From: Wickerhamiella versatilis
Lineage: Eukaryota
Direction of reading: 5' to 3'
DNA length: 64,000 bases
NCBI GenBank assembly: GCA_030867685.1
Contig: JAQOWU010000003.1
Coordinates: 1,240,001-1,304,000 of the forward strand
Part shown: positions 12,478 to 40,955 of the stretch, piece by piece
Position numbering within the stretch: position 1 is the stretch's first letter
How the letters are laid out: each line of letters opens with the position of its first letter
The notes under the pieces: generated by a model
Seen by the model: the letters and a program-made list of their open reading frames with translations, nothing else
Database searches by the model: none
Told to the model about the DNA's origin: nothing
Made by a program: the position numbers and the translations under genes

Positions 12478-14454
12478 ATGAAATACGGGAGCCAGCTGTC
12501 AGGCCGCAGTGTTCCAGAGTGGAAGGCCCATAATATTTTATATGAGGAACTGAAACAAGAGATTAAGGATGCCACATCAAAGAACGAGTTTGATCCTGCC
12601 AAATTCGAGGCGCTCTCAAAATTCTTAGAGGGGGAGCTATCAAATGTTAGCCTCTTTGTCCGATCCAAGCTTGGAGAGGTCGATTATAGGATCCAAAATT
12701 GCCAGGAAATAAGTGACGAGTACGTTCTCAGAAGAGAGATCGCGCATCTAAACACTGATATCCAGAGACTGGCAAGATTTATTGGGGCTCAATATATTGG
12801 CTTCAGGAAACTCATAAAGAAATACCGTCGTCATGCGCCACCAGACACACCTCCTGAATGTATGTTGGATGATCTTGAACGCCACCTCGAGACTCCAACC
12901 TCATTTGCCAAGGTTGATTTGACGCCGAGGTATGTACAATTGGCCGTTCTCTATAATGCCCTCCGGGGTGGTACCACAATACAAGAAGCCCCTCAGGCCG
13001 CTCCTGAAAGCAATTTAGCTTCACCAGCTTCGCAAATTATCCAATTTGATCTAGAGACGCTTTGCATCTCTGACGTGCAGAGGTTCTGGATTCATCCAGA
13101 AAACCTTGTAGAATTGAAGGTGCTACTCCTTAAGAACATGTCACTGGTTCATGAGGCTTCTGAAAATGAGGCAAGTGTTGTTGAATATATAGACACTCCT
13201 GAGTTTGAATACGCACGGCTCCTGCGAGAACCTGCTCAGGTCAGACAGATATACCTCGGTAAAGATGCATCCACTCCAGTTCTGTGTGCTCCAAGAAGTG
13301 GAATAAGGCCGATATGCACAGCTCACTTAACTCCAAACCTCCTGGAGCGGATACGCGATGGTTCGCTATCAAGCGATGCTCTTGACGGCCAGGACATGGA
13401 TGGTCAGCTAGCCCTTGGATGGGTTCTCACTAGGAAGGCACGACCTTCCTGGACACTTAAGTGTCGCATTTCACGATTTAAGAGTTTTGAATCATCTGAA
13501 TCGGCGGCCCGGGCACGGGCCCAGCTAGATTGCGATATCCCTGGTTTTCCATATGCTGTACTAGAAGTCAGGGCCCAGGGAGAAGCTTCTTGGCTTGAAG
13601 ATCTTAGAAAGAGTCATTTGGTATTCCCTGTTTCTAAGTCTTTTTCTCTCTACGCGTGGGGGCTTATGGACAAGGGACTTCTAGATGCACGGCCTCGCTG
13701 GTTGGACTCGTTGCTCACAGGAGAGGAAATCCGACGGTTGCCTTCAGCAAAACCGAAGGCTTTACATCCTAAACCTTCCCAACCAAATTTCATGACCAGT
13801 GCCCGTAACAGTAACGAAGAAGACCAAACCAACACTGGCCCACGGTACTGGAATGAATTTGACGATGGTGATGAGAATGAGTTTAATGGCCTTTTTATCG
13901 ATGCTGAGGACGAGGAATTTGCGCGTGAACATCGGGCATCCAGAATAACTAAACCAATATTTGCTTTCCGGCGTGGCGTGAAGCAGGGACTCAGGGGGTT
14001 GAAAGCTCGCTGGCACTCTTCAGATAACGCCTCGGACACTGATTCCACTACAGAAACTCCGCCATCTCTTCAATATTCCCCTCGCATCAGACCACAGAGT
14101 CCTGTGGCCAGTCCAGAACCTATGACGAGAGATGTTTTCTTGTCTGTACTCACGGCACTTTGTCTTTCTGTTTCCTTGACTATTGTTGGTTTGGTCTACG
14201 CTATTTTGATCATGGATGGTACGGAAGGCTTACTTCCTCCACTTCGATGGACTCTGGTTGTTTCACTCATATTTGCTCTTGCGAGCGCTGCAGCAGGCGC
14301 CGCTATTTTTAATCTCGAGGGTGAGCCAGCTTGGCATTCACAAATTGTGGTGCACTCAGCCTTATTTACAGTATTTTGCTTTGGTGTTGGTGCGGTCGTA
14401 TCATTGACTCTTCCACCGTTAAGCATTGATAGCTATTCTATCCACACACGATAA
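12478..14454 (+). CDS. VTC5: SPX-domain vacuolar transporter chaperone subunit, Vtc5-like
   Basis: MKYG...VPEW...YEELK SPX start, GFRKLIKKY, FWIHPENLVELK, FPYAVLEVR, RYWNEFD and three C-terminal TMs. Confidence 0.8.
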   Translation: MKYGSQLSGRSVPEWKAHNILYEELKQEIKDATSKNEFDPAKFEALSKFLEGELSNVSLFVRSKLGEVDYRIQNCQEISDEYVLRREIAHLNTDIQRLARFIGAQYIGFRKLIKKYRRHAPPDTPPECMLDDLERHLETPTSFAKVDLTPRYVQLAVLYNALRGGTTIQEAPQAAPESNLASPASQIIQFDLETLCISDVQRFWIHPENLVELKVLLLKNMSLVHEASENEASVVEYIDTPEFEYARLLREPAQVRQIYLGKDASTPVLCAPRSGIRPICTAHLTPNLLERIRDGSLSSDALDGQDMDGQLALGWVLTRKARPSWTLKCRISRFKSFESSESAARARAQLDCDIPGFPYAVLEVRAQGEASWLEDLRKSHLVFPVSKSFSLYAWGLMDKGLLDARPRWLDSLLTGEEIRRLPSAKPKALHPKPSQPNFMTSARNSNEEDQTNTGPRYWNEFDDGDENEFNGLFIDAEDEEFAREHRASRITKPIFAFRRGVKQGLRGLKARWHSSDNASDTDSTTETPPSLQYSPRIRPQSPVASPEPMTRDVFLSVLTALCLSVSLTIVGLVYAILIMDGTEGLLPPLRWTLVVSLIFALASAAAGAAIFNLEGEPAWHSQIVVHSALFTVFCFGVGAVVSLTLPPLSIDSYSIHTR

Positions 14455-17821: not shown

Positions 17822-18037
17822 ACTGAAAAGATCTTATGTCAAGTCCATTATCTTACTTGGCTAGTTATTTGCTTTTTGACATCTAATTATTTAGTTTAGG
17901 ATCTAACATGTATGGGGAAACCCGCTTCTTGACACCCAGAATATGCATTCTGCAGCAGTGTCCTTATTTTTCTCATGCTGAACCTGACAGCGGTAAGGGT
18001 AGGCACCACTCTGTTAGTCAGATACGCGTTCGTCTCA

Positions 18038-20764
18038 ATGTCTCCGGATGGACAAGCACGGCCAATACCGTCGACACCGGAGCTTGGGACGCTAGAAATA
18101 CATGAGCAGGTGGTAGCTCTTGACCGTGATAACTGGCGTCTGCGTGAAGAAAATGCAGCCCTACGAGCAGGCCGGGGTATCCCATCAGTCTCTGTGTCTG
18201 ATAGTATTCCAAGCAAAGAATCAGAGAGTGCGAAGCTGCGGGCCCAGCTAGAGAAGGCACAAGAAACAATTTCGATAAACACGCGTGAATTGCGGGATGC
18301 AGAGGCTGCACATACAGCTTTCTCACAAAATACTGAGACGCGTAACAAGGAGCTTGAAAGTAAAGTATCTGTTCTCGAGTCAACGGTAGACAAGGTTCGA
18401 TCACATACGAATAATGTTGAATCTCAACTCAAGTTGTCGCAAGCTCGTGTTAAAGAGCTCGAATCACAGCAAAAGGAAGCAGAAAGCAGAGATATAGGGG
18501 AAGCTGCCCACACGACTAATGAACTCCAATCTAAAATTGCGGAACTCCAGTCAAAACTACAAGAGTCCCAGGCACAGAATAAAGATTTGGAGAATGAACT
18601 AGATTCAACTGTGCAAAATGTCAAGAGCCTTGAATCCCGTTTAGAAAGTGTTCCTTCCATACCCGCTCGTGAGCTTGATGATGAAAGACAAGATTGGCGG
18701 AAACGTGCTCTAGATGCACAATTCGAAATAGCTGAACTTGATTCTGAGCTTAAGGCTGCAAAGAAGCAGGTTTACTTATATTCACGTGGACCGATGGTTC
18801 TGTATGGCAGAATCAAAGAATGCCTAGCTGCTGCAAGTCAGCAAAAGGCGGAGTCAACTGAAAAAAGAGCTCTGGAGGCTGAAGCTAAAGCTGCGGAAGC
18901 TGCCAGAATGGCGCGGCAGGCTGAGGCCGAAGCTGAGGAGGCTATTGCATCGTCATCACAAGAAATTCGAAGCGTTCGCCGTGCAGCCTCTGACGAGGTT
19001 AAGGCTGCAGAGGCAAGAGCTAGCCAGCAAATATCAGTTGCAGAATCAGAAACTCGTGAAATGCGGCATCGTATGGAAGCAGCTCTGAAATCCGCTGAAG
19101 CTTCTCGTAAGTCTTGCGAAGATGCGAAGTCCATGGCGCAGATTGCGGTTCAAGAACGTGAAGATGCTGTGAAGGCTTTTGCGGAAGCGAAGGCGCGTAA
19201 GGAGGAAGCTGAAGCTGAAGCCAAGACTGCCATTCGAGAAAAAGAAGCCGCTGTGGCTGCTCAGGTCGAAGCAGAGTCGGCCTCTCAACGACATAGGCTT
19301 GCCGCTGAGTCTGCAGACCGTCGCCGTGAAAGTGCTGAGGCTTCACTGAAGGAGTTTGAGGCTGTAATTCGTCGTCTAAAAGCAGACCTGATCTCTGCTC
19401 AGACTGCTGTTACCACAACTGAACGGAACTCTCGTGAAAAATTGGCAGATGCGCAAGCGAAGTTAGAAAAGCTCAATGATCAGTTGGAATCAGCACAAGA
19501 AGCTCTCAGACGTACCCAAGGTGACTTGGGGGTCGCTCAAAATCGCATCACGGATTTAGAATCCTCCCTTCAGATATCTCAAGCCGATCTCCTTTCAGCG
19601 AGAGAGCAGGTACAAGCGCAGTCAACTGTCGCAACTCAGCTAAGCCGGAGCTTGGAGGGCGCTCAAAGACTCGCAGGCAATGCTGAGGAAGCTGATAGAG
19701 AATTGAAATTACTGCGAACTGAATACCAAAAGGCTATAGAGGAAACTGAAGCTCTCCGTCGCACCACTGCAGACCAGGCAGTACGATTGCGAAATTCTCC
19801 ACAGCAGTTAGGTGAACTACAGGACGAATTGCTGCAACTAAGAGAGCAGGCCCAGGGTGCTTCATCTGAATTAGCCCAATTGAAGGGTAAAGAAAATGAG
19901 CGCTTCACTAAATACAGAGAAGCGCTCGAGGCAGAGGCGCAAAACGTTGTGAGCCATTACGAGCGGATGTACCGTGCTGATTGTGAGCTTTTGCAGCGTC
20001 AAGCTACTGATCTTGAATCTAGGCTGCAGGAAACCGAACGTCGGCTTGTCGAGGCAAGGGAACAGCTTGTGGAGGCTCGTGGAAGTAGTTCTCGCACAGA
20101 CCTACAATTGCGCGAGCTTCAGATCGAGATTTCATCATTGCGCCAAGCTCTGGCTGTTGCTGAAGGTGGTGCGTCACGACTAAGGACTGAGGCAGAGGGG
20201 GTTGCAAATATGGAGAAGCAGATTGCTGCTGCACAGCATGAGTTAGCAACATACGAAGCGACGGCCCGTAATGAGATTGCTAAACGGGATTCAGAACTGG
20301 TGGCCAAAGAATCGTTGTTTAACAAGGCGACCAGTGAGATCGAGTCACTTAAGCATCAACTTAAAGAAGCTGAAATTAACAGCTACAATGCATTGAACCG
20401 CCTACAACACTTGCAAGAAATAGAGAATGACAACAGTAAGCTTCTCTCCCGTGTTGAGTCGTTGAGACGTGCTGCACAAATCACCCACCGATACCTCACT
20501 GCAGTCTGCTCATTGCAGTCACGTCAAATCGCTCGTTTGCGACTGGCAAAGGAATGGGCTTCTGGAGAACTACGTTCTCGAGAGGCCAGACAATTAGAAA
20601 TGATGCGCAGAGCTCAAGTGCCGCCTCCCTCAAAACCAATCTCACTTGCAGCGGCATTCAATACAGTTCTAGCGGCAGTACGTTTTACACGACCGACTCC
20701 CGTCCCAGAGGACTTGGCACTTCATAAAGTGTATGAACATTTAGACAAGGACTATTTATTGTAA
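18038..20764 (+). CDS. long coiled-coil spindle pole body protein with PACT-like C-terminus (Spc110/Pcp1-like)
   Basis: About 800 aa of heptad-rich coil ending in LRLAKEW...SLAAAFNTVLAAVRF, resembling the calmodulin-binding PACT motif. Start is 18038 or 17975. Confidence 0.65.
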   Translation: MSPDGQARPIPSTPELGTLEIHEQVVALDRDNWRLREENAALRAGRGIPSVSVSDSIPSKESESAKLRAQLEKAQETISINTRELRDAEAAHTAFSQNTETRNKELESKVSVLESTVDKVRSHTNNVESQLKLSQARVKELESQQKEAESRDIGEAAHTTNELQSKIAELQSKLQESQAQNKDLENELDSTVQNVKSLESRLESVPSIPARELDDERQDWRKRALDAQFEIAELDSELKAAKKQVYLYSRGPMVLYGRIKECLAAASQQKAESTEKRALEAEAKAAEAARMARQAEAEAEEAIASSSQEIRSVRRAASDEVKAAEARASQQISVAESETREMRHRMEAALKSAEASRKSCEDAKSMAQIAVQEREDAVKAFAEAKARKEEAEAEAKTAIREKEAAVAAQVEAESASQRHRLAAESADRRRESAEASLKEFEAVIRRLKADLISAQTAVTTTERNSREKLADAQAKLEKLNDQLESAQEALRRTQGDLGVAQNRITDLESSLQISQADLLSAREQVQAQSTVATQLSRSLEGAQRLAGNAEEADRELKLLRTEYQKAIEETEALRRTTADQAVRLRNSPQQLGELQDELLQLREQAQGASSELAQLKGKENERFTKYREALEAEAQNVVSHYERMYRADCELLQRQATDLESRLQETERRLVEAREQLVEARGSSSRTDLQLRELQIEISSLRQALAVAEGGASRLRTEAEGVANMEKQIAAAQHELATYEATARNEIAKRDSELVAKESLFNKATSEIESLKHQLKEAEINSYNALNRLQHLQEIENDNSKLLSRVESLRRAAQITHRYLTAVCSLQSRQIARLRLAKEWASGELRSREARQLEMMRRAQVPPPSKPISLAAAFNTVLAAVRFTRPTPVPEDLALHKVYEHLDKDYLL

Positions 20765-22576: not shown

Positions 22577-22666
22577 AGGAGCAAATATTACCTAATGTAA
22601 TGTAGGATATTCAAGCTTGGAATACTAAATTGCTTGGTTATTGTGTAAGACGTATCGTATACGTAA

Positions 22667-23854
22667 TTAAAATTTAGAAGGTGCGCCTAATATATTAGGA
22701 GTTGTAAGCAATGTTCCTACCGCAGTTGTTTCTGGTCGCCAGGTAGGCTTTGGGGGCTCTTGCGGAGACAACTGATATTGTCGAACACTAAACTTTGATT
22801 CCTTGGATGGGTCACCCCAGACCTCATCAAATATGGCAACTTCCGAACTTCTAGGACTTTCGTTGTCCTCATTGCTGTCAGCACTGAACCAAAGCAAAAT
22901 ACTGCGGTATTTCATCAGGGCGAATGAAGACGTTCCAAAGCAGACAAAGAGGATCCATGAAAGAGCCACCAGAATAATTTTCACAGCCAAATTGTTTTCC
23001 AAGACTATGGTAGCACTCTTTGCATCTTTTGACTCTTGGAAGGCAGAAAATGGCATGCGCAGTATTTCATCCCAATTCTCGGGCTTTCCATGAGCCCACG
23101 CTAATGGGGTCGTACCTTGTCTCTGAAGCATAGTTACACATCCTGAAAACATATACATTGACATAGGGCAAAGCACACAGGTCACAACAAAAGAAAATAT
23201 GCTCAAACGAATAAATTGACCTCGTGACATATTCGGAATAAAGCTAACTTTTTCGAATGACTCGGCTTGTCCATAACTGTAGAACCGCACTAAAAATACT
23301 ACCATTGTCACTAAGCAGATTATTCCCAGAATAAATAGCCAAATGACGTAGCACATGATATACGCGACGCTATGGTCAATGTTATTGGAGCATCCAACGT
23401 ACTGAACCACCTGATAACGGGAATACGTAAAAAAAGTATCCACTACAAAAATAATGGTTGGTAAAGATAGTACTGTGGCTGCAGTTACAATGGACCGCTT
23501 ACGATGCTGCTGGTCTGTCAAAACTCGCGGCGTGGGTCGAATCAGTTCAAGCATCTCCCAGTTAAGAGCACATTGAGTTAATAGCACACCTGGCGAGCCT
23601 GCTGTAAGAAGTCTAACATCAACGTCGCACCATCCAACCCCAGACCACCAGGTGTCTACGGCATCATTGGCCCATTCAATTCCACTAATGGCCGAAGAAA
23701 CACAAAAGTATAGAAACCAGAATGAGAGGATAGTCAAGGCTATGTTAGGCCTCTTGGTGAAGCCAAAGGCAAAAATCACAGGTAGTTGCAATACCGCCCC
23801 TATTATGCTAAAAACTGCAAGCGCAGGACCGTTGTATCCACCACTGTAAGGCAT
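22667..23854 (-). CDS. STE3: a-factor pheromone receptor (STE3-family GPCR)
   Basis: Seven hydrophobic segments, W-x-GVGWCD-x3-RL, RYQVVQYVGC, QFIRL and FVCFGTS motifs. First ATG is at 23854. Confidence 0.92.
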   Translation of the reverse strand: MPYSGGYNGPALAVFSIIGAVLQLPVIFAFGFTKRPNIALTILSFWFLYFCVSSAISGIEWANDAVDTWWSGVGWCDVDVRLLTAGSPGVLLTQCALNWEMLELIRPTPRVLTDQQHRKRSIVTAATVLSLPTIIFVVDTFFTYSRYQVVQYVGCSNNIDHSVAYIMCYVIWLFILGIICLVTMVVFLVRFYSYGQAESFEKVSFIPNMSRGQFIRLSIFSFVVTCVLCPMSMYMFSGCVTMLQRQGTTPLAWAHGKPENWDEILRMPFSAFQESKDAKSATIVLENNLAVKIILVALSWILFVCFGTSSFALMKYRSILLWFSADSNEDNESPRSSEVAIFDEVWGDPSKESKFSVRQYQLSPQEPPKPTWRPETTAVGTLLTTPNILGAPSKF

Positions 23855-23954
23855 TTTCACCGAGCTATTTTGAAAGTACAATAAGTATAAATATTAATCT
23901 AAGTCAATGGTATTCACCGCCCTTATTTAGGTAGAGCGGGTCAATTAATGCAAG

Positions 23955-23970
23955 TTACCAAATTGGGTAG
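23955..23970. promoter_or_regulatory. Mcm1 (P box / CArG) site upstream of STE3
   Basis: TTACCAAATTGGGTAG matches TT(A/T)CCNNNT(A/T)NGG(A/T)A, about 100 bp upstream of the STE3 ATG. Confidence 0.65.
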
Positions 23971-24385
23971 TCGTGAGTGTAGTGAGTGTACAATCCTAAC
24001 CCTGTACATGTGGTGAAATTACCGGTGCTTGAATACCACCGCAAACTCAGTATTTTTATGTGGAGAGTCTCATTGCGATAGATCTACTTATAGTTGGTTT
24101 TAAAAAATTCTATACGGACATGAATATCAATACCATGCAGAGAGGACAGCGGTGATTGCTGACATGTAGTTCATAGGCTTCGGAGTCTGTATATAATTTT
24201 TTCTAAATTTTAAGAACTAAAAAAACAACTACGGAAATTCAGTTTCACTAAGTCCAATAGAATTGTTGACAAGTTCTCTCATCGCAACACGCTGTAACTT
24301 TGCAAGTATTGTCAGTGATAACGTGTATTACTAACCACCATATACATGACCGACTAATAAAGTCCCTGATAATATTATTTCATGT

Positions 24386-27300
24386 TTAGGTACTCTCAAT
24401 AGGAGAATCAATGGGACTAGGTGCAGCCAAAGAATCGCTAGCAGATATTGAGTAGTTCTCTGCGTCAAGAAAGCTAGATTGGGCACCCGGAAAGACCTCC
24501 CTAGGTTTAGCCGAAGGTTGCGGTTGATTTTCCTTATGTGTTTGATCGACATGTGGACTCAAAAACTCTTTTGAAGGCTTATTTTGGATGATTTCTTGAT
24601 TCACTTCATGAATACCGTATTCTTGGAAGTTCTTCTTGTCATTATCTCTAGCAGAAAATGAAGATTCAGGTACTTCCCCGTGCAACTCATGGCTTAATTT
24701 TGTGTTTTCATTCCTCAATATAGCAGCACCATCACCGTCGATAGTTACTGTTCGTGATACACCGCTTGGATCTCGCCATACTCCTACAAGAGCCTGACAA
24801 TAATCGAAACTATGTAGTTTATGGCTCACCATGATAACCTGCACACCTGATCCAGCAAGGGAAATTAGAAACCTTGTATAATACTTCAAGTTCTCGCCAT
24901 CCAACGCAGCATCTAATTCGTCGAAAATAACCACTTGAGAGGGGCGAGCGGCAACAAGTATACATACAGAAGCTAGAGCGCGCTCTCCACCACTTAGTTT
25001 TTTCAAATCATGACCACTTTTTTTTGGTGGAATAAATGATACAGAAACGCCTTCCACCCATGGGTCCTTATCTGATATCGCTATAACCTGTACATTCCCA
25101 CCTTCATTAGCTTTACCGTACAATTCTTTGAGTCTTGTTTGAAAGGAGTTCATAGAATTAAAAAATTCTGTGCGCCTTCGAGTTTGTAATTCTAACAATC
25201 TCTCTGACGCTTCATTAAAATTAGTTCTTCTTTCATCGACCAATGATAAAGCCGCTTCATATTCCAGTTTAGCCCGCATCAGTCGGCTTTCTGCATGGAA
25301 TGATGACCCCAGAGAATCAATTTCGGATCGAATCTGAGCAACAGTAGCATCACATTTTAATGTTGTATCGATGTCTTCTTCATCCTCAAATTGATCTTCG
25401 TCAGAGTCATATATAGAATCTTCGACAGAGACTTGAAAACTTTGTTCCTTCAATAAAGAAAGTTTGTCTTGTTCCTCCTCTAAATGGGCCAGATAAAGTG
25501 ATTGATGTGCCCAAGCCTCTGCCGCTTGGGATTCTTGGACCATATTAGCATTCTCAAGATCACATAGCCTTTTTCCAGCCTTCTCGAGATTTTTTGAAGC
25601 CCTATCTCGATTGATTTTACCCTCAGAAATAAGCTTTATAAGTTTTTCTGTCTCATAAGAATGTCTCTCGGTATCTAATCGAGCTTTTTCAAGCGATGTT
25701 TTTGCCCTTGACACTGCTTCTTCGTGATTTTTCACGTTTGCATGTGCATCTCTTAGTGAATTTTGAATGTCCGGTAAGACTTCAGCTGAGCTTTGTAGCG
25801 CTATGACTTTCAAGGGTATTTCGTGACGCTCTACAACAGACTGAAAGTGTTCCTCGCACCTTTCAATCTCTTTTGCGACCTGGCCTAGCGCATTTTCCAT
25901 ACTAGATATTTCCACCAATATTAAGGAAATTAGGTTTTGATTCTTGCCAATTTGTGTCTCAACCACTGAAATGTTCCGAGTCAAGTCTAAAATATCGTCA
26001 ATTAATGCTGCATCGGCAATCTCGATGTCTTCTACCTTCTCTTGGATCGAAAAGCGCTCGTTCCGCATTTCTGAAACACTGGCTTCATAAATGCAAGCTG
26101 CAGTAGGGTCTTTTAGTTTATCCATAATTTCTTCAGGAATTAAGGAGCTTTCATCAGCAGTTGTACCATCATTCCCTGGTTCAACGGGAATCCACTCACC
26201 CTCCTTTTTGGAAGGCACGTAGAACACATCTTCCACCACTATAGCGCCTCCAAGCACGTACGCTACAACACCCCTCAGGGCAGGATTTGTATCTATAAGT
26301 TCAATTGCAGCGTAACCAGAAGAGGGGTGGGGAATAGGGCCTTTAACGATGTCTGCAGATAGTAGAATCTTAATTCCAAGATATTCGCGTGAGAGTAGCT
26401 TGCAACAGCTTATAGCTGTATCTACAGAGTCAACAATAATTGATTCTGCATGTTCTGCTATAATGCTCGCTATAGCTGCCCTGTAGCATTCTTCTCTAAC
26501 TCTTATGCATTCAGGAAAGTAGCCAAACACACCTGAAAACTCAGACTTCAATCGCATTATCACTTGGCGAAGATGGTCTTCATGGTGAATACGGCGTTGC
26601 ATCTCACACAATTGCGACAGCCTTATCTCAGCTTCCTCGAGATCAACCGATAACTTCTCGGCCATTATTTTCGATTCAATCCTGGTATTATCGAGTTCTT
26701 TGCGCTTTTTTCTCTTTAGTTCTTGCTGGAGTTCGAAGACATCTTTTTGACCTCTGAGTGTTTCAAGCTTCCCTTCGAAATGCTGTTTGCGAAGTTTGGT
26801 GGCTCTCAGACTCTCTAAGATACTCTCTTGTCTATCATAAAGCACACTTGGTGAATCACCCTGCCAGTGATCCTTCAACCGATTATATTTTATCGAGGCC
26901 TCATTTCTTTGGCTTTCCGAGAGATTGTGGTAATTATCCAGTCGTTTTTCTATGGTCTCGCACTGTGTGTGTGCGTACTGAAGTTCTTTTTCGGCAGCGC
27001 GGAGTTCATTCTCTAAAATGTCGACTGTATCAACCGTTTTTTCATCTTTTAGAGCTGAATACTTAGCTTGCAAGTCGGCCAATATCGCCTCTTTGGATAT
27101 GAAGTCTTTATGCAGCTCTTCCAGTTCTCTTCTTCCCTCAAGTAGGCTTTCTCGGGCCTCTTTGGCCAATTTATCTTGCTTTATTGCTTCATTTTTCAAG
27201 GAGTGAAGCATTTTTTGATCTTGCGATACCTTGTCTTCCTGTTGGCTCATTTCGTGAGCTTCAATTGATGCTCTTTTAGCTTTAATACGTGCCAGCCGTC

Positions 27301-27754
27301 TCAACAAATGTTCTTTCTGCTCGCGTGTCTTTACTACCTCGCTAAATTGTTGAATCTCATCAGAAGAACGGTGCATCCGCAATTCTGCTTGTCTAAGATG
27401 CTTCAAAGTGTCTGCTTTCCTGCATTGCAAAACTTCTTCTTCTTCTTGAAATTTCCCACGGTCATTTCCTTCAACAAGCTCGGCTATACGTATGGCAGGA
27501 AAATCCACCAGTTCCTCTAAATCAGTCTCTGTAATGAGTAGTGAAGAAGTGACCTCTCCTGTCATGCTAATTTCCGCTTCCTTGTCTGCATTGAATAATT
27601 GACTGGTAGGATCCACAGCATACACAATGGCTTCACAAATTGAGCTCTTACCGCTACCATTTTGTCCAATTAGGCCGATAAGGGATCTTTCGCCGAAATA
27701 TACACGCTCGTCTTGGTAACTTCGAAATCCCCGAATCCGGAGTTCGTTCAGCAT
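24386..27754 (-). CDS. divergent SMC1-like cohesin ATPase
   Basis: Walker A GQNGSGKS, SMC1-type hinge (LKSEFSGVFG...SIIVDSVDTAISC), C-terminal head DPWVEG...PPKK...LSGGER...VIFDELDAALD...IMVSHK, and long coiled coils. First ATG is at 27754. Confidence 0.85.
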   Translation of the reverse strand: MLNELRIRGFRSYQDERVYFGERSLIGLIGQNGSGKSSICEAIVYAVDPTSQLFNADKEAEISMTGEVTSSLLITETDLEELVDFPAIRIAELVEGNDRGKFQEEEEVLQCRKADTLKHLRQAELRMHRSSDEIQQFSEVVKTREQKEHLLRRLARIKAKRASIEAHEMSQQEDKVSQDQKMLHSLKNEAIKQDKLAKEARESLLEGRRELEELHKDFISKEAILADLQAKYSALKDEKTVDTVDILENELRAAEKELQYAHTQCETIEKRLDNYHNLSESQRNEASIKYNRLKDHWQGDSPSVLYDRQESILESLRATKLRKQHFEGKLETLRGQKDVFELQQELKRKKRKELDNTRIESKIMAEKLSVDLEEAEIRLSQLCEMQRRIHHEDHLRQVIMRLKSEFSGVFGYFPECIRVREECYRAAIASIIAEHAESIIVDSVDTAISCCKLLSREYLGIKILLSADIVKGPIPHPSSGYAAIELIDTNPALRGVVAYVLGGAIVVEDVFYVPSKKEGEWIPVEPGNDGTTADESSLIPEEIMDKLKDPTAACIYEASVSEMRNERFSIQEKVEDIEIADAALIDDILDLTRNISVVETQIGKNQNLISLILVEISSMENALGQVAKEIERCEEHFQSVVERHEIPLKVIALQSSAEVLPDIQNSLRDAHANVKNHEEAVSRAKTSLEKARLDTERHSYETEKLIKLISEGKINRDRASKNLEKAGKRLCDLENANMVQESQAAEAWAHQSLYLAHLEEEQDKLSLLKEQSFQVSVEDSIYDSDEDQFEDEEDIDTTLKCDATVAQIRSEIDSLGSSFHAESRLMRAKLEYEAALSLVDERRTNFNEASERLLELQTRRRTEFFNSMNSFQTRLKELYGKANEGGNVQVIAISDKDPWVEGVSVSFIPPKKSGHDLKKLSGGERALASVCILVAARPSQVVIFDELDAALDGENLKYYTRFLISLAGSGVQVIMVSHKLHSFDYCQALVGVWRDPSGVSRTVTIDGDGAAILRNENTKLSHELHGEVPESSFSARDNDKKNFQEYGIHEVNQEIIQNKPSKEFLSPHVDQTHKENQPQPSAKPREVFPGAQSSFLDAENYSISASDSLAAPSPIDSPIEST

Positions 27755-28202
27755 CTGATCGTGGTACCACACGATGACTCAGGAAAAGTCTGTATGTATG
27801 TCTTAATGCGTAATAAAATTAACGAATTCATTGATAAATCCTATTAAAAAAAGTACTTAAGTCTTAAATATGGTATCAAAGAATTACATTAATTAAAATG
27901 CTTGATTTGACATCGTAATAATAGATATTTTAGTCCGGTACTACTAAACTTCAAGTATCTCATGAGGTAAATTATACAATGTAATCGTTAGCTATTAGTG
28001 GCAAAATGTGGGAAATTTTATGGATATTGAGTTGAAGGCACAATTGATAGGTACAAATCGATAAATAGGTGACTCTGAAATCTTTTGGCTGAAAGACCTG
28101 CTTATCGAGATTTAAAGGCCACACTGTCATATTATGAAGTCTGGCGCCAAAGTTAGTAAATTCATTATCTTGTTTTTGTGAAATATCCTAGGAAGCCTAA
28201 AG

Positions 28203-28210
28203 TTGCCACC
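28203..28210 (-). promoter_or_regulatory. Rpn4/PACE-like element
   Basis: TTGCCACC (GGTGGCAA on the minus strand), 33 bp before the PRE9 ATG. Confidence 0.55.
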
Positions 28211-28243
28211 ACCACAGGTGGATGACATAAGCTATCACATCGT

Positions 28244-29008
28244 ATGAGTCGACGCTACGACAGCCGTACAACGATATTCTCGCCCGAGGGCCGGCTCTAC
28301 CAAGTTGAATATGCTATGGAGGCTATTAGCCATGCGGGTACAGCCATAGGAATTCTTGCCAAAGATGGCATTGTGCTCGCAGCAGAGAAAAAGGTCACGT
28401 CCAAGCTATTAGAACAATCGAACTCAGCCGAGAAGATGTACGCTTTGAATAAAGATTGTATTTGTGCTGTTGCTGGTATAGACTCAGATGCGTCTACACT
28501 TGTAGCACGAGCTCGTCTAGTGGCGCAGAATCATCTTGCAACTTATGATGAAGAGATTCCCGTGGAACTGCTTGTCAAGCAAATTTGTGATATTATGCAG
28601 GGCTATACACAGCATGGTGGACTGCGTCCTTTTGGCGTGTCTTTCATTTATGGTGGTTGGGATTCTCGTTTGGGGTATCAGCTATACCAATCAAATCCCT
28701 CGGGTAATTATTCTGGATGGCTTGCTACCTCCGTTGGTGCACATAACTCCAGTGCACAGACTCTTTTGAAACAAGATTACAAGCCAGATTTACCGTTGCA
28801 CGACGCTACAGTCCAAGCACTCAAAGTTCTGTCTAAAACTATGGATTCAGCATCTCTCAATGGCGAGAAAATTGAGATAGCAACTGTTGGGGGTGCTTCA
28901 GCTGAGGCTTTGGATAGTAAAAAGCCCATCCTTAAACTTTGGAAGCCTTCTGAAATTCAAGAGCTACTTGTGCAGGAAGAAATTATTCCCAAGCCAGAGG
29001 ATGATTAG
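28244..29008 (+). CDS. PRE9: 20S proteasome alpha3 subunit
   Basis: MSRRYDSRTTIFSPEGRLYQVEYA and YTQHGGLRPFGVS. Confidence 0.98.
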   Translation: MSRRYDSRTTIFSPEGRLYQVEYAMEAISHAGTAIGILAKDGIVLAAEKKVTSKLLEQSNSAEKMYALNKDCICAVAGIDSDASTLVARARLVAQNHLATYDEEIPVELLVKQICDIMQGYTQHGGLRPFGVSFIYGGWDSRLGYQLYQSNPSGNYSGWLATSVGAHNSSAQTLLKQDYKPDLPLHDATVQALKVLSKTMDSASLNGEKIEIATVGGASAEALDSKKPILKLWKPSEIQELLVQEEIIPKPEDD

Positions 29009-29113
29009 CCAGCTGCAGGCAGCGGGCTTGGTAATTAGATCCGTGTTAAGTATACTTAGTAGAATTTAAAAAGCTGGCGTGAGATGAACACTAAAGGAGG
29101 GTATTCAGGGCCA

Positions 29114-36057: not shown

Positions 36058-36855
36058 CTAGGAGATAGCTAGAACTACCACGATCGTGACCAGCACGGTT
36101 GTCAATGTTGGAATTGTAAGTGGTTGAGCTGCATTGGCTTGGCAAACCCATTTATTATAGCCCTCGGTACAGTTTAGAGATGCAGATGCAGATGCAGATG
36201 CAGATGTTGTTGGACTAGCACTGCCGGTTTGTGCCGCTGTCGTGAGCGACCGGCTGTTAGGCAATCCAGGAGCTAAACTCAAAGATGTAATGTTGAAGTT
36301 TAATAGTGAAGAGCTGGTGCTAGAAGCTCCTCCTGTACAAGGGGTGGTCACCCATACAGTTTCCGTAGTTTCTACGTTGTTGGTGATAGTGGCGACCGTA
36401 GTGGTAACCACTGCAGAAGACGACGACGTGGAATCGCTCGTGGTGCTAGCAGCGGATGCAGTGGAGCATGGCTTTGTGACATAGTCTGTCTGGACTAGTG
36501 TTGTGGTGGCAGCATCACCCTCTTTTCCCTGCTGCGTACTTTCGATTGATGCTGAAGAGGCTGTTGATATGACAGGCTCACATGTGCCAGAATTCGTCGT
36601 TGGGGTCGAATCATCTGAGGCTGATGTTGATGTGATCGAGGTATCTGCTGAACTCAAAGCGATTGATTCACCCGTTTCGGCAGTGCTTGACGGAGAGCTG
36701 TTTTCTGTCTGATCCGTGGACGGTGAGGTGGTCCCCGGCCCAAACGTGATGACGGAAGTGCCTGTGGGTACAATATACGAACTCCCATCAAACGCAGAAG
36801 GTTCTTCAATGAATTGCGCGAAAGAAATCGCAAAAAACAGTACTATATGGTACAT
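36058..36855 (-). CDS. Ser/Thr-rich secreted, probably GPI-anchored cell-surface protein
   Basis: Signal-like MYHIVLFFAISFA, S/T-rich body with VT-x-PC motifs, and an NAA omega-like site before a hydrophobic C-terminus. Confidence 0.8.
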   Translation of the reverse strand: MYHIVLFFAISFAQFIEEPSAFDGSSYIVPTGTSVITFGPGTTSPSTDQTENSSPSSTAETGESIALSSADTSITSTSASDDSTPTTNSGTCEPVISTASSASIESTQQGKEGDAATTTLVQTDYVTKPCSTASAASTTSDSTSSSSAVVTTTVATITNNVETTETVWVTTPCTGGASSTSSSLLNFNITSLSLAPGLPNSRSLTTAAQTGSASPTTSASASASASLNCTEGYNKWVCQANAAQPLTIPTLTTVLVTIVVVLAIS

Positions 36856-39401: not shown

Positions 39402-40955
39402 ATGGGTCGACGAAAGATTGCGATTCAGCCCATCACTGAGGAGCGTAACCGTTCAGTGTAAGTATACCCGAAGACAAATTGGAGTCATGTTTCTAACAAT
39501 AGCACGTTCATCAAGAGAAAAGCTGGGTTGTTTAAAAAAGCCCATGAGCTGTCTGTTCTATGCCAAGTAGATGTTGCACTGGTCGTCATTGGTCCCAATA
39601 GGCGTATCTTCGAGTATTCATCGTGCGGCGTGAACGAAGTTATGGACAAATATTCAAAGGTAAGTAATTGCTATTTTTAGCCGGTGGGTACCACACCGCC
39701 CTTCTCTCCTACATGAGTGGTACTAACAAATCAGAGTCTTGTACGTGAGTCTAGAGGACCTGCAGACTATGCGGGATTAAGAGGTGGCACTCAGGGCCAT
39801 ACCTCTGGAAGTTCCCCTGAGGATGACCCCAAGAACGAGTCTGAGTCTGAGGTGGTGCCTGAACCAGAGCCTGAAATGGGCCGGAGTTCAGAACCAAAAC
39901 AGGTTCCAGATCCTGCATTATCACCAGATCGTCGGATTAAGGTTCAGGAATCGGTGACAGGGGTGTCCACCCATGGTCAAGGCACTAATCAGTCTGAACT
40001 TCCCAGAATGCCAGCTCCCTCGGCTAAGGCAATGCCACCTCCGCGGATGCAACTCTTATATCCTTATTATAATGGAATGGATCCTTACCAGCAGCGGGGA
40101 TATCCTGTTATTCAGGGGCAACCATTATCTGCAAATGGTGTGCCTCTTCGGGGACCTCCAGTAGATCATTCCTACGTGGATTCTGCTAATCAAAGGTTTA
40201 ATATGCCACTACCGCCTCAACAACCCCCTGCCATTCCCCCTCGCTATCAGCCACAACATCCACAACAGCCACAGCAGCCGCGGGGTCACCCATCCTCGGC
40301 TGGAATGGGCATGGCTCCCAAGGGAATGCAGCAGCTCGCAGTGCACCCCACCCCACCCCCTTCAGCGGCTCATGGACCTCCACCAGGTTCACAAGGCCCA
40401 CCAAGCTCACCGGGTCAACCGGGTCCACAAGTGCCGCAAGCACCACAAGGGGTTCCGCTGTCAGTTCCTGCGGGTGCTCCTAGTGATGACCACGCGACCG
40501 CACACCGGCCAAAGCTTACAGTTCAAATTCCTGGCTCTGAAATGGGACAGGAGCACGCGCAAGCAGGTGCTGGGGACGGTTTGAGTCAAGATAAAGCGAA
40601 TGGCCGCTCGTCGTCATCAATTGTGAGCGCCACGGCGGCACGTTGGCCAACAGCGTTCCCTCAGAGCCCAATGCAGTTCTTTGTTGCACAACAGCCATCT
40701 GATCCTGGATCTGCCCGTGATCAGGGCCCAATGTCGAGAACCGGTCGTACGCCGTCGAATGGTGTGCTGGCAGGCCAAACTGTCGGAGCGGAAACACCTA
40801 CCACGGCCTTACCATCTCGATATCTCAGCGAGATGCTTGCTAGTCCCTCAAATATGTTTTCTATGGAGCCAGATGTTCTCCAATTCACCCCTATCAATGA
40901 CCGCAAACGTGTTGCTACTGGAGACAACGAGCCTGATAGCAAGCGTGTAGCATAA
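39402..40955 (+). CDS. RLM1: MEF2-type MADS-box transcription factor, three exons (39402-39457, 39503-39659, 39735-40955)
   Basis: Spliced frame gives [47 protein letters not shown]...; both introns have GTAAGT donors and CTAAC...AG ends; exons 1+2 total 213 nt and join the 39717 ORF in frame; RPKLTVQIP and ALPSRY...SP motifs follow. Confidence 0.93.
39458..39502 (+). other. RLM1 intron 1 (45 nt)
   Basis: GTAAGT...TTCTAAC-AATAG; removal restores the MADS box. Confidence 0.92.
39660..39734 (+). other. RLM1 intron 2 (75 nt)
   Basis: GTAAGT...TACTAAC-AAATCAG; removal keeps the reading frame. Confidence 0.88.

Follow-up and report, generated by a model that had tools for sequence, protein, structure and literature searches.

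Vertebrate SMC1-beta is a meiosis-specific SMC1 paralog with a C-terminal extension that retains all canonical head and hinge elements, and DPY-27 of C. elegans is the SMC4 paralog of the dosage-compensation condensin. Two types of SMC4 in Oxytricha and Trichomonas and two types of SMC2 in Paramecium are reported in passages of PMC8665677. Together with DPY-27, these proteins are precedents for an extra kappa- or nu-type SMC in a specialised complex; none of them is a copy of a fungal SMC1. To our knowledge, no paralog among these cases lacks the Q-loop glutamine and the hinge glycine motif. Likewise, neither a fungal SMC1 paralog nor an SMC1 without these elements is described in the titles, abstracts and selected passages of the literature covered by our search. 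Here we describe a gene of Wickerhamiella versatilis that encodes a heavily remodelled SMC1-type protein (P0001) in which both elements are absent. It occupies positions 24386..27754 on the minus strand of a stretch of 64,000 nucleotides (the window; positions 1,240,001 to 1,304,000 of contig JAQOWU010000003.1, assembly GCA_030867685.1).

The gene is an intron-free open reading frame (ORF) of 1122 codons plus stop, over which the RNA cover shows no joints. Its product matches Pfam SMC_N (residues 1-999; E-value 7.3e-22; 78.3 bits at a cut-off of 40) and Pfam SMC_hinge (residues 406-509; 6.8e-12; 46.3 bits at a cut-off of 22.5), the latter over profile positions 1-108 of 116. It also has the split ABC-type head that defines the SMC superfamily, with Walker A in its N-terminal portion and the signature motif, Walker B and D-loop in its C-terminal one. 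A Foldseek comparison of the P0001 model with the PDB returned SMC and Rad50 chains only, without a finer match; the C-lobe resembles solved Smc1 and Smc4 heads in its fold. The class of the protein was assessed with profile hidden Markov models (HMMs) built here from 45 SMC1, 27 SMC4 and 45 prokaryotic SMC sequences, the SMC1 set being chosen partly by likeness to the query; these profiles and the trees described below covered the three classes named, SMC2, SMC3, SMC5 and SMC6 standing outside the comparison. P0001 scored 279.8 bits with the SMC1 profile, 203.4 bits with prokaryotic SMC and 177.2 bits with SMC4, and the corresponding values for its ortholog from a sister species (P0003) were 278.7, 191.3 and 175.5 bits. 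Nine of the ten top representative matches belong to the SMC1 class, as labelled by BLAST against named SMC1, SMC4 and prokaryotic SMC proteins, and the top 20 comprise 16 SMC1 sequences, one SMC4 and three short or other sequences.

[quoted passage not shown] In an IQ-TREE tree of the heads and hinge (41 rows, 502 columns) under the posterior mean site frequency (PMSF) model, it grouped with three W/S SMC1s with support values of 100/100, its stem measuring 3.92 substitutions per site. When P0139, an unnamed and divergent W/S SMC1 of canonical architecture, was added, P0001 became its sister (100/92) inside the W/S SMC1 group (100/100), and the stem amounted to 3.29. Fourteen alignment columns are common to P0001 and P0139 alone, compared to at most six for any other row; P0139 itself shows 430 private states versus 248-343 in the eight other rows compared. 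These results support the claim of the initial annotation that P0001 is an SMC1-derived, heavily remodelled protein, and in all probability it is a functional SMC1 derivative, i.e. a kappa-type SMC. The derivative probably arose within the W/S clade and is lineage-restricted.

The closest described counterpart is the fungal cohesin SMC1 (Smc1/Psm1), the nearest named representative being that of W. sorbophila in the P0122/P0392 cluster. It shares with P0001 the head-arm-hinge-arm-head layout, the ATP motifs, the C-terminal head lobe and the first part of the hinge, with an identity to the W. sorbophila protein of about 20% in the multiple alignment and of 23.6% over 798 amino acids (aa) by BLASTP to the cluster member P0393. 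In contrast to fungal SMC1, P0001 has an N-terminal lobe shorter by 55-64 aa and arms shorter by about 40-50 aa each, has neither the Q-loop Gln nor the hinge glycine motif, harbors a histidine in the H-loop where the canonical proteins have leucine or phenylalanine, and carries an additional tail of about 114 aa. The features were delimited on the alignments and on a full-length AlphaFold model calculated from an 84-row alignment (A4), which has a mean predicted local distance difference test (pLDDT) score of 73.8. All of them lie on the minus strand.

The ATP-binding motifs are retained. Walker A (GQNGSGKS, residues 30-37, 27644..27667) is identical in P0003, and LSGGE (residues 920-924, 24983-24997), the Walker B/D-loop DELDAALD (residues 945-952, 24899-24922) and the H-loop VSHK (residues 976-979, 24818-24829) are located inside the C-terminal head lobe. 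This lobe (aa 883-1008, 24731..25108) is modelled with pLDDT values of 87-94, and its region shares 66% identity with the ortholog (aa 851-1010). The N-terminal head lobe (aa 1-97, 27464..27754) was defined by AlphaFold secondary structure and pLDDT, alignments and distance counts. The model shows strands at residues 5-7, 17-19 and 25-30, the P-loop, a helix at 36-47, a core strand at 71-75 and a helix starting at residue 98, and the Walker A helix is followed, ahead of the Q-loop strand, by a loop (residues 53-65) with pLDDT below 50. According to both the alignments and the model, the antiparallel sheet subdomain between these two elements is missing. The distance from the Walker A lysine to the Q-loop aspartate is 42 aa in P0001, whereas it is 97 aa in the SMC1 of W. 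sorbophila, and the medians are 106 aa in 61 SMC1 rows, 113 aa in eight SMC4 rows and 108 aa in twelve prokaryotic SMC rows. The Q-loop strand itself is degenerate (LITETD, aa 73-78, 27521..27538): it aligns to the canonical LVFQGD of other SMCs and has lost the glutamine, as has the LIRGSD of P0003, whereas the conservation of Gln at this position across the 84 aligned rows is 90% or more. The arginine of the 'LR' stretch is also absent from P0001 in the alignments, in line with the initial annotation, which had described a short N-lobe without visible Q-loop or R-loop.

The hinge is divided into a conserved and a degenerate part. The first part (aa 405-509, 26228..26542), which corresponds to the Pfam SMC_hinge match, has pLDDT values of 85-94 and shares 59% identity with the ortholog (aa 396-510), whereas the last part (aa 510-551, 26102..26227) is of low confidence and only 26% identical (aa 511-560). 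Here the hinge glycine motif, VTLDGxxIxxSGxMTGG elsewhere, is not deleted but replaced by unrelated sequence of similar length, and the approximately 40 residues in its place reach pLDDT values of 46-58. The arms are modelled as helices at residues 98-405 and 552-882, predicted to pair as an antiparallel coiled coil. The N-terminal arm (aa 98-404, 26543..27463) was delimited by the model and by distance counts, and the C-terminal arm (aa 552-882, 25109..26101) is interrupted by an acidic break of low confidence at residues 763-792. From Q-loop to hinge P0001 has 330 aa compared to an SMC1 median of 372, and from hinge to LSGGE 415 aa compared to a median of 509 and to 466 in W. sorbophila; these distances indicate that each arm is about 40-50 aa short. 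Behind the C-terminal lobe follows a Ser/Pro-rich tail of about 114 aa (aa 1009-1122, 24389..24730), predicted to be disordered (pLDDT about 30-40) and 30% identical to that of the ortholog, with which it shares the motifs PGA[QH]SSF (24470-24490) and APSPI (24410-24424). Thus, the features that the initial annotation had listed, namely an ORF of about 1120 codons, preserved Walker A, LSGGE and DELDAALD motifs and first SMC1-type hinge part, a replaced GxxxxxxGxxxGG hinge motif and a tail of about 110 aa, were all located; the shortening of both arms, the lack of an intron and the transcription of the gene go beyond that description.

In the databases searched, the remodelled protein is known from two species only. 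A word-index protein search gave 333 matches among 7995 scored candidates, of which only P0002, a database copy from the same species, and P0003 were close; the next match reached 95 bits. An exhaustive HMMER search of 1,835,955,588 cluster representatives gave 10,435 matches at E<=0.001 and 3,062 at E<=1e-10, and again P0002 and P0003 were the only two representatives to reach 1e-30, followed by a match of 115.7 bits. The best non-ortholog representative in this search, P0122, stands for a cluster that holds the W. sorbophila 'Structural maintenance of chromosomes protein 1'. P0003 belongs to a second, sister species and is 46% identical to P0001, with the same architecture and the same tail motifs. 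Walker A, LSGGE, the Walker B/D-loop and the H-loop histidine are identical in the two proteins, and the identity is 62% in the N-terminal head, 59% in the hinge and 66% in the C-terminal head, compared to 42-43% in the arms, 26% at the end of the hinge and 30% in the tail. P0001 keeps the ATP-binding cassette, the C-lobe, both long arms and the hinge over its first two thirds, and it is these parts that are best conserved between the two species. Fifteen differences of an RNA-sequenced strain are listed inside the ORF, and 101 further differences across the stretch are unlisted. Among the listed ones, five synonymous changes and one non-synonymous change fall into codons 935-991, and two synonymous and seven non-synonymous changes into the tail. 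No fewer than four sequence types of the species, with 0, 1, 2 and 55 differences from the window type, have an open frame. The gene is intact in the window type, in the lineage of P0390 (95% identical) and in the sister species (46% identical).

The rate of change was compared with that of NPL4. The product of this neighbouring gene shares 98% identity with a same-species variant and 83% with the sister species, and its next matches, W. sorbophila among them, reach 48-54%. In the NPL4 tree, the window lineage lies inside a clade with W. sorbophila that has a support of 100, and its stem measures 0.45 compared to 0.35-0.74 in other subclades. On this basis the yeast belongs to the W/S clade. 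By contrast, the SMC stem amounts to 3.3-3.9 substitutions per site versus 0.2-1.15 for the other W/S SMC1 branches, and the path between the two species is 0.86-0.88 for P0001 versus 0.23 for NPL4. The ratios calculated here give a rate after the species split of about 3.7 times that of NPL4 for P0001 and of about 0.9 times for W. sorbophila SMC1. Judged from these trees and identities, the acceleration is gene-specific and lasting, not genome-wide, and the good conservation of neighbouring genes pointed out in the initial annotation is reflected in the 83% identity of NPL4 to the sister species compared to 46% for P0001. The SMC1 and NPL4 genes of W. sorbophila are found on separate records, of 2.87 Mb and 2.57 Mb respectively; the two are unlinked, an observation too weak to count either way. 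Eighty metagenome loci were retrieved from the W/S NPL4 alignment (A3), none of which was W/S-like (best identity 49%, partial). A tblastn search found P0001, W. sorbophila SMC1 and eight window neighbours in none of these 80 loci and NPL4 in all 80.

Gene-specific and lasting acceleration, loss of near-universal SMC elements and a nearest relative, P0139, that still has these elements form a pattern that points indirectly to an extra copy. The explanation we prefer, with a probability of roughly 0.5, is that P0001 diverged asymmetrically after a duplication in the common ancestor with the sister species, and that a canonical SMC1 would do the ordinary cohesin work. A candidate for this canonical protein is the cluster P0139/P0550/P0551, which may be the SMC1 of this yeast or that of a relative. 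P0139 is 27-30% identical to other W/S SMC1s and about 28% identical to P0001. Like P0001, it contains TNPxxRxVxAYVL in the hinge, SxVVxTxE at the arm start, DEPW, PPxKxSG, GGERAxAS and the H-loop histidine, whereas, unlike P0001, it keeps a full N-lobe, YQGD and the hinge sequence GSGLVSGG and is without a tail. The make-up of its cluster resembles that of the P0001 cluster (Logan and ENA, four contigs, a second type 1.6% apart).

Several observations weigh against an extra copy. The P0139 cluster may come from a different, GARP-richer W/S yeast, as its composition suggests: the GARP/FYMINK ratio is 1.92 for P0139 versus 0.89 for P0001, and a GARP-rich W/S yeast exists, since one W/S NPL4 (P0278) has a ratio of 1.41. 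The value of P0139 is still within the range of the window (0.65-2.79, median 1.08, 37 ORFs). The matches of the protein searches carry no organism link, and none of them is tied to this yeast as a second SMC1. Furthermore, SMC1 is normally a single-copy gene, and the partner choice, ATPase behaviour and hinge behaviour proposed below for P0001 are predictions. In the trees, holding the canonical SMC1s together without P0001 costs 9.4 and 16.8 log-likelihood units and is not rejected by the approximately unbiased test (p-AU of 0.12 and 0.057), and a full-length FastTree tree places P0001 basally in SMC1 among other long branches, so that its placement is model-dependent. We read this basal position as probable long-branch attraction.

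The remaining points against the duplication favour a history in which P0001 is the sole SMC1 of its lineage, hyper-diverged by a gene-specific burst, with SMC3 and kleisin having co-evolved, including matching shorter SMC3 arms. We consider this history somewhat less likely than an extra copy. P0001 groups with the W/S SMC1s in the PMSF trees as an ortholog would, and its ATP-binding motifs and C-lobe are strictly kept. Low, steady transcription in all four RNA runs is what would be expected of a housekeeping SMC1. SMC1 is near-universal, being present in nearly all eukaryotes surveyed according to the sections consulted of 10.1101/2024.01.07.573240, and the lineage-specific SMC duplications reported in passages of PMC8665677 concern SMC4 and SMC2 of ciliates and a parabasalid. 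The W/S clade is described in parts of PMC12629084 as a faster-evolving lineage, and PDS1 and REC8 are reported there to belong to the genes that 10% or more of the W/S strains lack. The view of the initial annotation that Smc1 evolves slowly in yeasts does not hold for this clade: apart from a single relative at 65%, the SMC1 of W. sorbophila shares no more than 30-33% identity with every other SMC1. SMC1 is unusually fast-evolving across the whole W/S clade (P0392, P0415, P0124, P0139). However, a sole SMC1 agrees poorly with the gene-specific acceleration (NPL4 stem of 0.45 versus 3.3-3.9) and with a rate that, once the two species had separated, is still about 3.7-fold that of NPL4, whereas W. 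sorbophila SMC1 evolves at about 0.9 times. Moreover, P0001 has lost elements that at least 90% of the 84 aligned SMCs conserve, whereas its nearest relative, P0139, retains the canonical architecture.

Far less probable is an assignment to another SMC class (SMC4, SMC2/3 or SMC5/6) or to a paralog older than fungal SMC1 that resembles SMC1 by long-branch effects. Such an assignment would be compatible with the basal FastTree position and with the p-AU values of 0.12 and 0.057, which allow a position outside canonical SMC1. It would also fit the scores of the C-lobe (about residues 818-1006) against solved chains, in which Smc1 and Smc4 heads perform alike: 6qpq_A reached 87.6 bits and 6qj2_A (Smc4) 87.1 bits, and 7ogt_A (Smc1) 80.2 bits and 6yvd_D (Smc4) 77.8 bits. 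SMC3 heads, however, match the C-lobe at just 33-34 bits, and 6qj0_A, which we take to be an Smc2 head, matches P0001 at 31.5 bits. For the proteins of both species the SMC1 profile scores about 100 bits higher than that of SMC4, a difference arising mainly in the arm-plus-hinge portion (112.8 versus 31.9 bits), and the 16 SMC1 sequences among the top 20 representatives are opposed by a single SMC4. P0001 also has several derived motifs in common with the W/S SMC1 P0139. A clade of P0001 with SMC4 gave a p-AU of 0.035, on which the SMC4 class was set aside.

That P0001 is a decaying or functionless SMC1 relic, open and transcribed by chance, is highly improbable: it is the fastest-evolving SMC of those compared, has lost the Q-loop and the hinge motif and carries a nearly unconstrained tail (two synonymous and seven non-synonymous listed changes), but its reading frame of 1122 codons is uninterrupted in the sister species and in four or more sequence types of its own species, the two species agree fully in the ATP-site motifs and the H-loop histidine, the identity amounts to 59-66% in heads and hinge compared to 26-43% elsewhere, codons 935-991 show an excess of synonymous changes (five to one), and both arms are shortened by similar amounts, which keeps the antiparallel coiled coil in register.

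The pattern of kept and lost parts allows some predictions for P0001. In cohesin, SMC1 pairs with SMC3, and its head holds the C-terminal winged-helix domain of Scc1/Rec8. The Q-loop Gln and the N-lobe subdomain contribute there to ATP hydrolysis and to the clamping of DNA on engaged heads, and a second hinge interface requires the glycine motif of the hinge. P0001 retains the parts by which a kappa-SMC binds ATP and offers its signature motif to the partner head. P0001 would dimerise with a nu-type SMC, either SMC3 or a copy of SMC3, by ATP-dependent head engagement, and its retained hinge part would supply one of the two hinge interfaces to a partner with a complete hinge. Its C-lobe probably docks the C-terminal domain of a kleisin. 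With both the Q-loop Gln and the sheet subdomain of the N-lobe missing, hydrolysis at the ATP site of P0001 itself is predicted to be slow or absent. The surface that clamps DNA at the top of the N-lobe would be lost as well, since without the sheet subdomain no canonical surface of this kind can be expected. Together, the predicted losses would result in a complex with an asymmetric ATPase and a half-open hinge. The disordered tail with its two conserved short motifs may represent a docking or regulatory handle. If the duplication is real, P0001 resembles vertebrate SMC1-beta in being a second SMC1 with a C-terminal extension. However, unlike P0001, SMC1-beta retains the canonical elements of heads and hinge, the tail of P0001 is Ser/Pro-rich and predicted to be disordered, the RNA runs give no sign of meiotic expression, and the two proteins would be independent in origin.

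As an extra copy, P0001 would be a fungal SMC1 paralog and would suggest that a small, streamlined yeast genome encodes a further, specialised complex of the cohesin type. As the sole SMC1, it would imply that the Q-loop Gln, the DNA-clamp surface of the N-lobe and the hinge glycine motif are dispensable in nature, though treated as essential for the ATPase and hinge functions of SMC proteins. A free-living yeast would then run cohesion with one hinge interface and with arms shorter by about 40-50 residues, a natural experiment on dispensable SMC elements. Either way, the protein can be regarded as a natural separation-of-function variant, in which ATP binding, the signature motif and the kleisin-facing lobe are kept and the parts for hydrolysis, DNA clamping and double hinge closure are gone.

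Transcription was assessed in four RNA runs with the same species label. In all four, RNA covers positions 24336-27807 end to end at low depth and without joints. The depth over the SMC gene is roughly 1-23 reads per bin, both directions summed, compared to about 300-460 for the proteasome neighbour, and it falls to almost zero on either side (23902-24335 and 27808-28241). The meiosis or mating specificity suggested in the initial annotation finds no support in this low, continuous transcription in four runs of unknown growth conditions. The intergenic region (27755..28243) is shared with a divergent proteasome alpha-subunit gene (28244-29008, plus strand). It contains no MCB element (ACGCGT), the whole window having nine matches versus 7.68 expected; URS1 and MSE were not scanned. 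The database copy P0002 opens six codons upstream of P0001 at a GTG (27755-27772, MWYHDQ...), which looks like a prokaryote-style artefact of the gene caller. The ATG at 27754, before which the frame has no other ATG, is the likelier start.

Reads of the RNA runs are 95-99% alike to the window across 22600-29100 and differ from it at many sites, and the RNA-run strain has only three of eight listed amino-acid changes in common with P0390. This indicates that several diverged lineages are grouped under one species label. DNA of the window was found in at least 20 runs from 12 studies, comprising isolates, whose assemblies amount to about 11 million letters, and metagenomes mostly from food fermentations.

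Directly downstream of the SMC gene lies a gene for a STE3-family pheromone receptor (22667-23854, minus strand; Pfam STE3, 3.6e-45). It is transcribed in the RNA runs, with a maximum of about 90 reads per direction in a single bin. As far as can be told, this is an ordinary neighbour that does not link P0001 to mating. Three further ORFs of the window, encoding 929 aa (17975-20764, plus strand), 265 aa (36058-36855, minus strand) and 359 aa (39876-40955, plus strand), have no Pfam match at 1e-5; the 359-aa product is very rich in Gly, Ala, Arg and Pro, with a GARP/FYMINK ratio of 2.79. The ORF at 12478-14454 (plus strand, 658 aa) matches SPX only over residues 1-37 and VTC only over residues 356-395, and may be a divergent or interrupted VTC-type gene.

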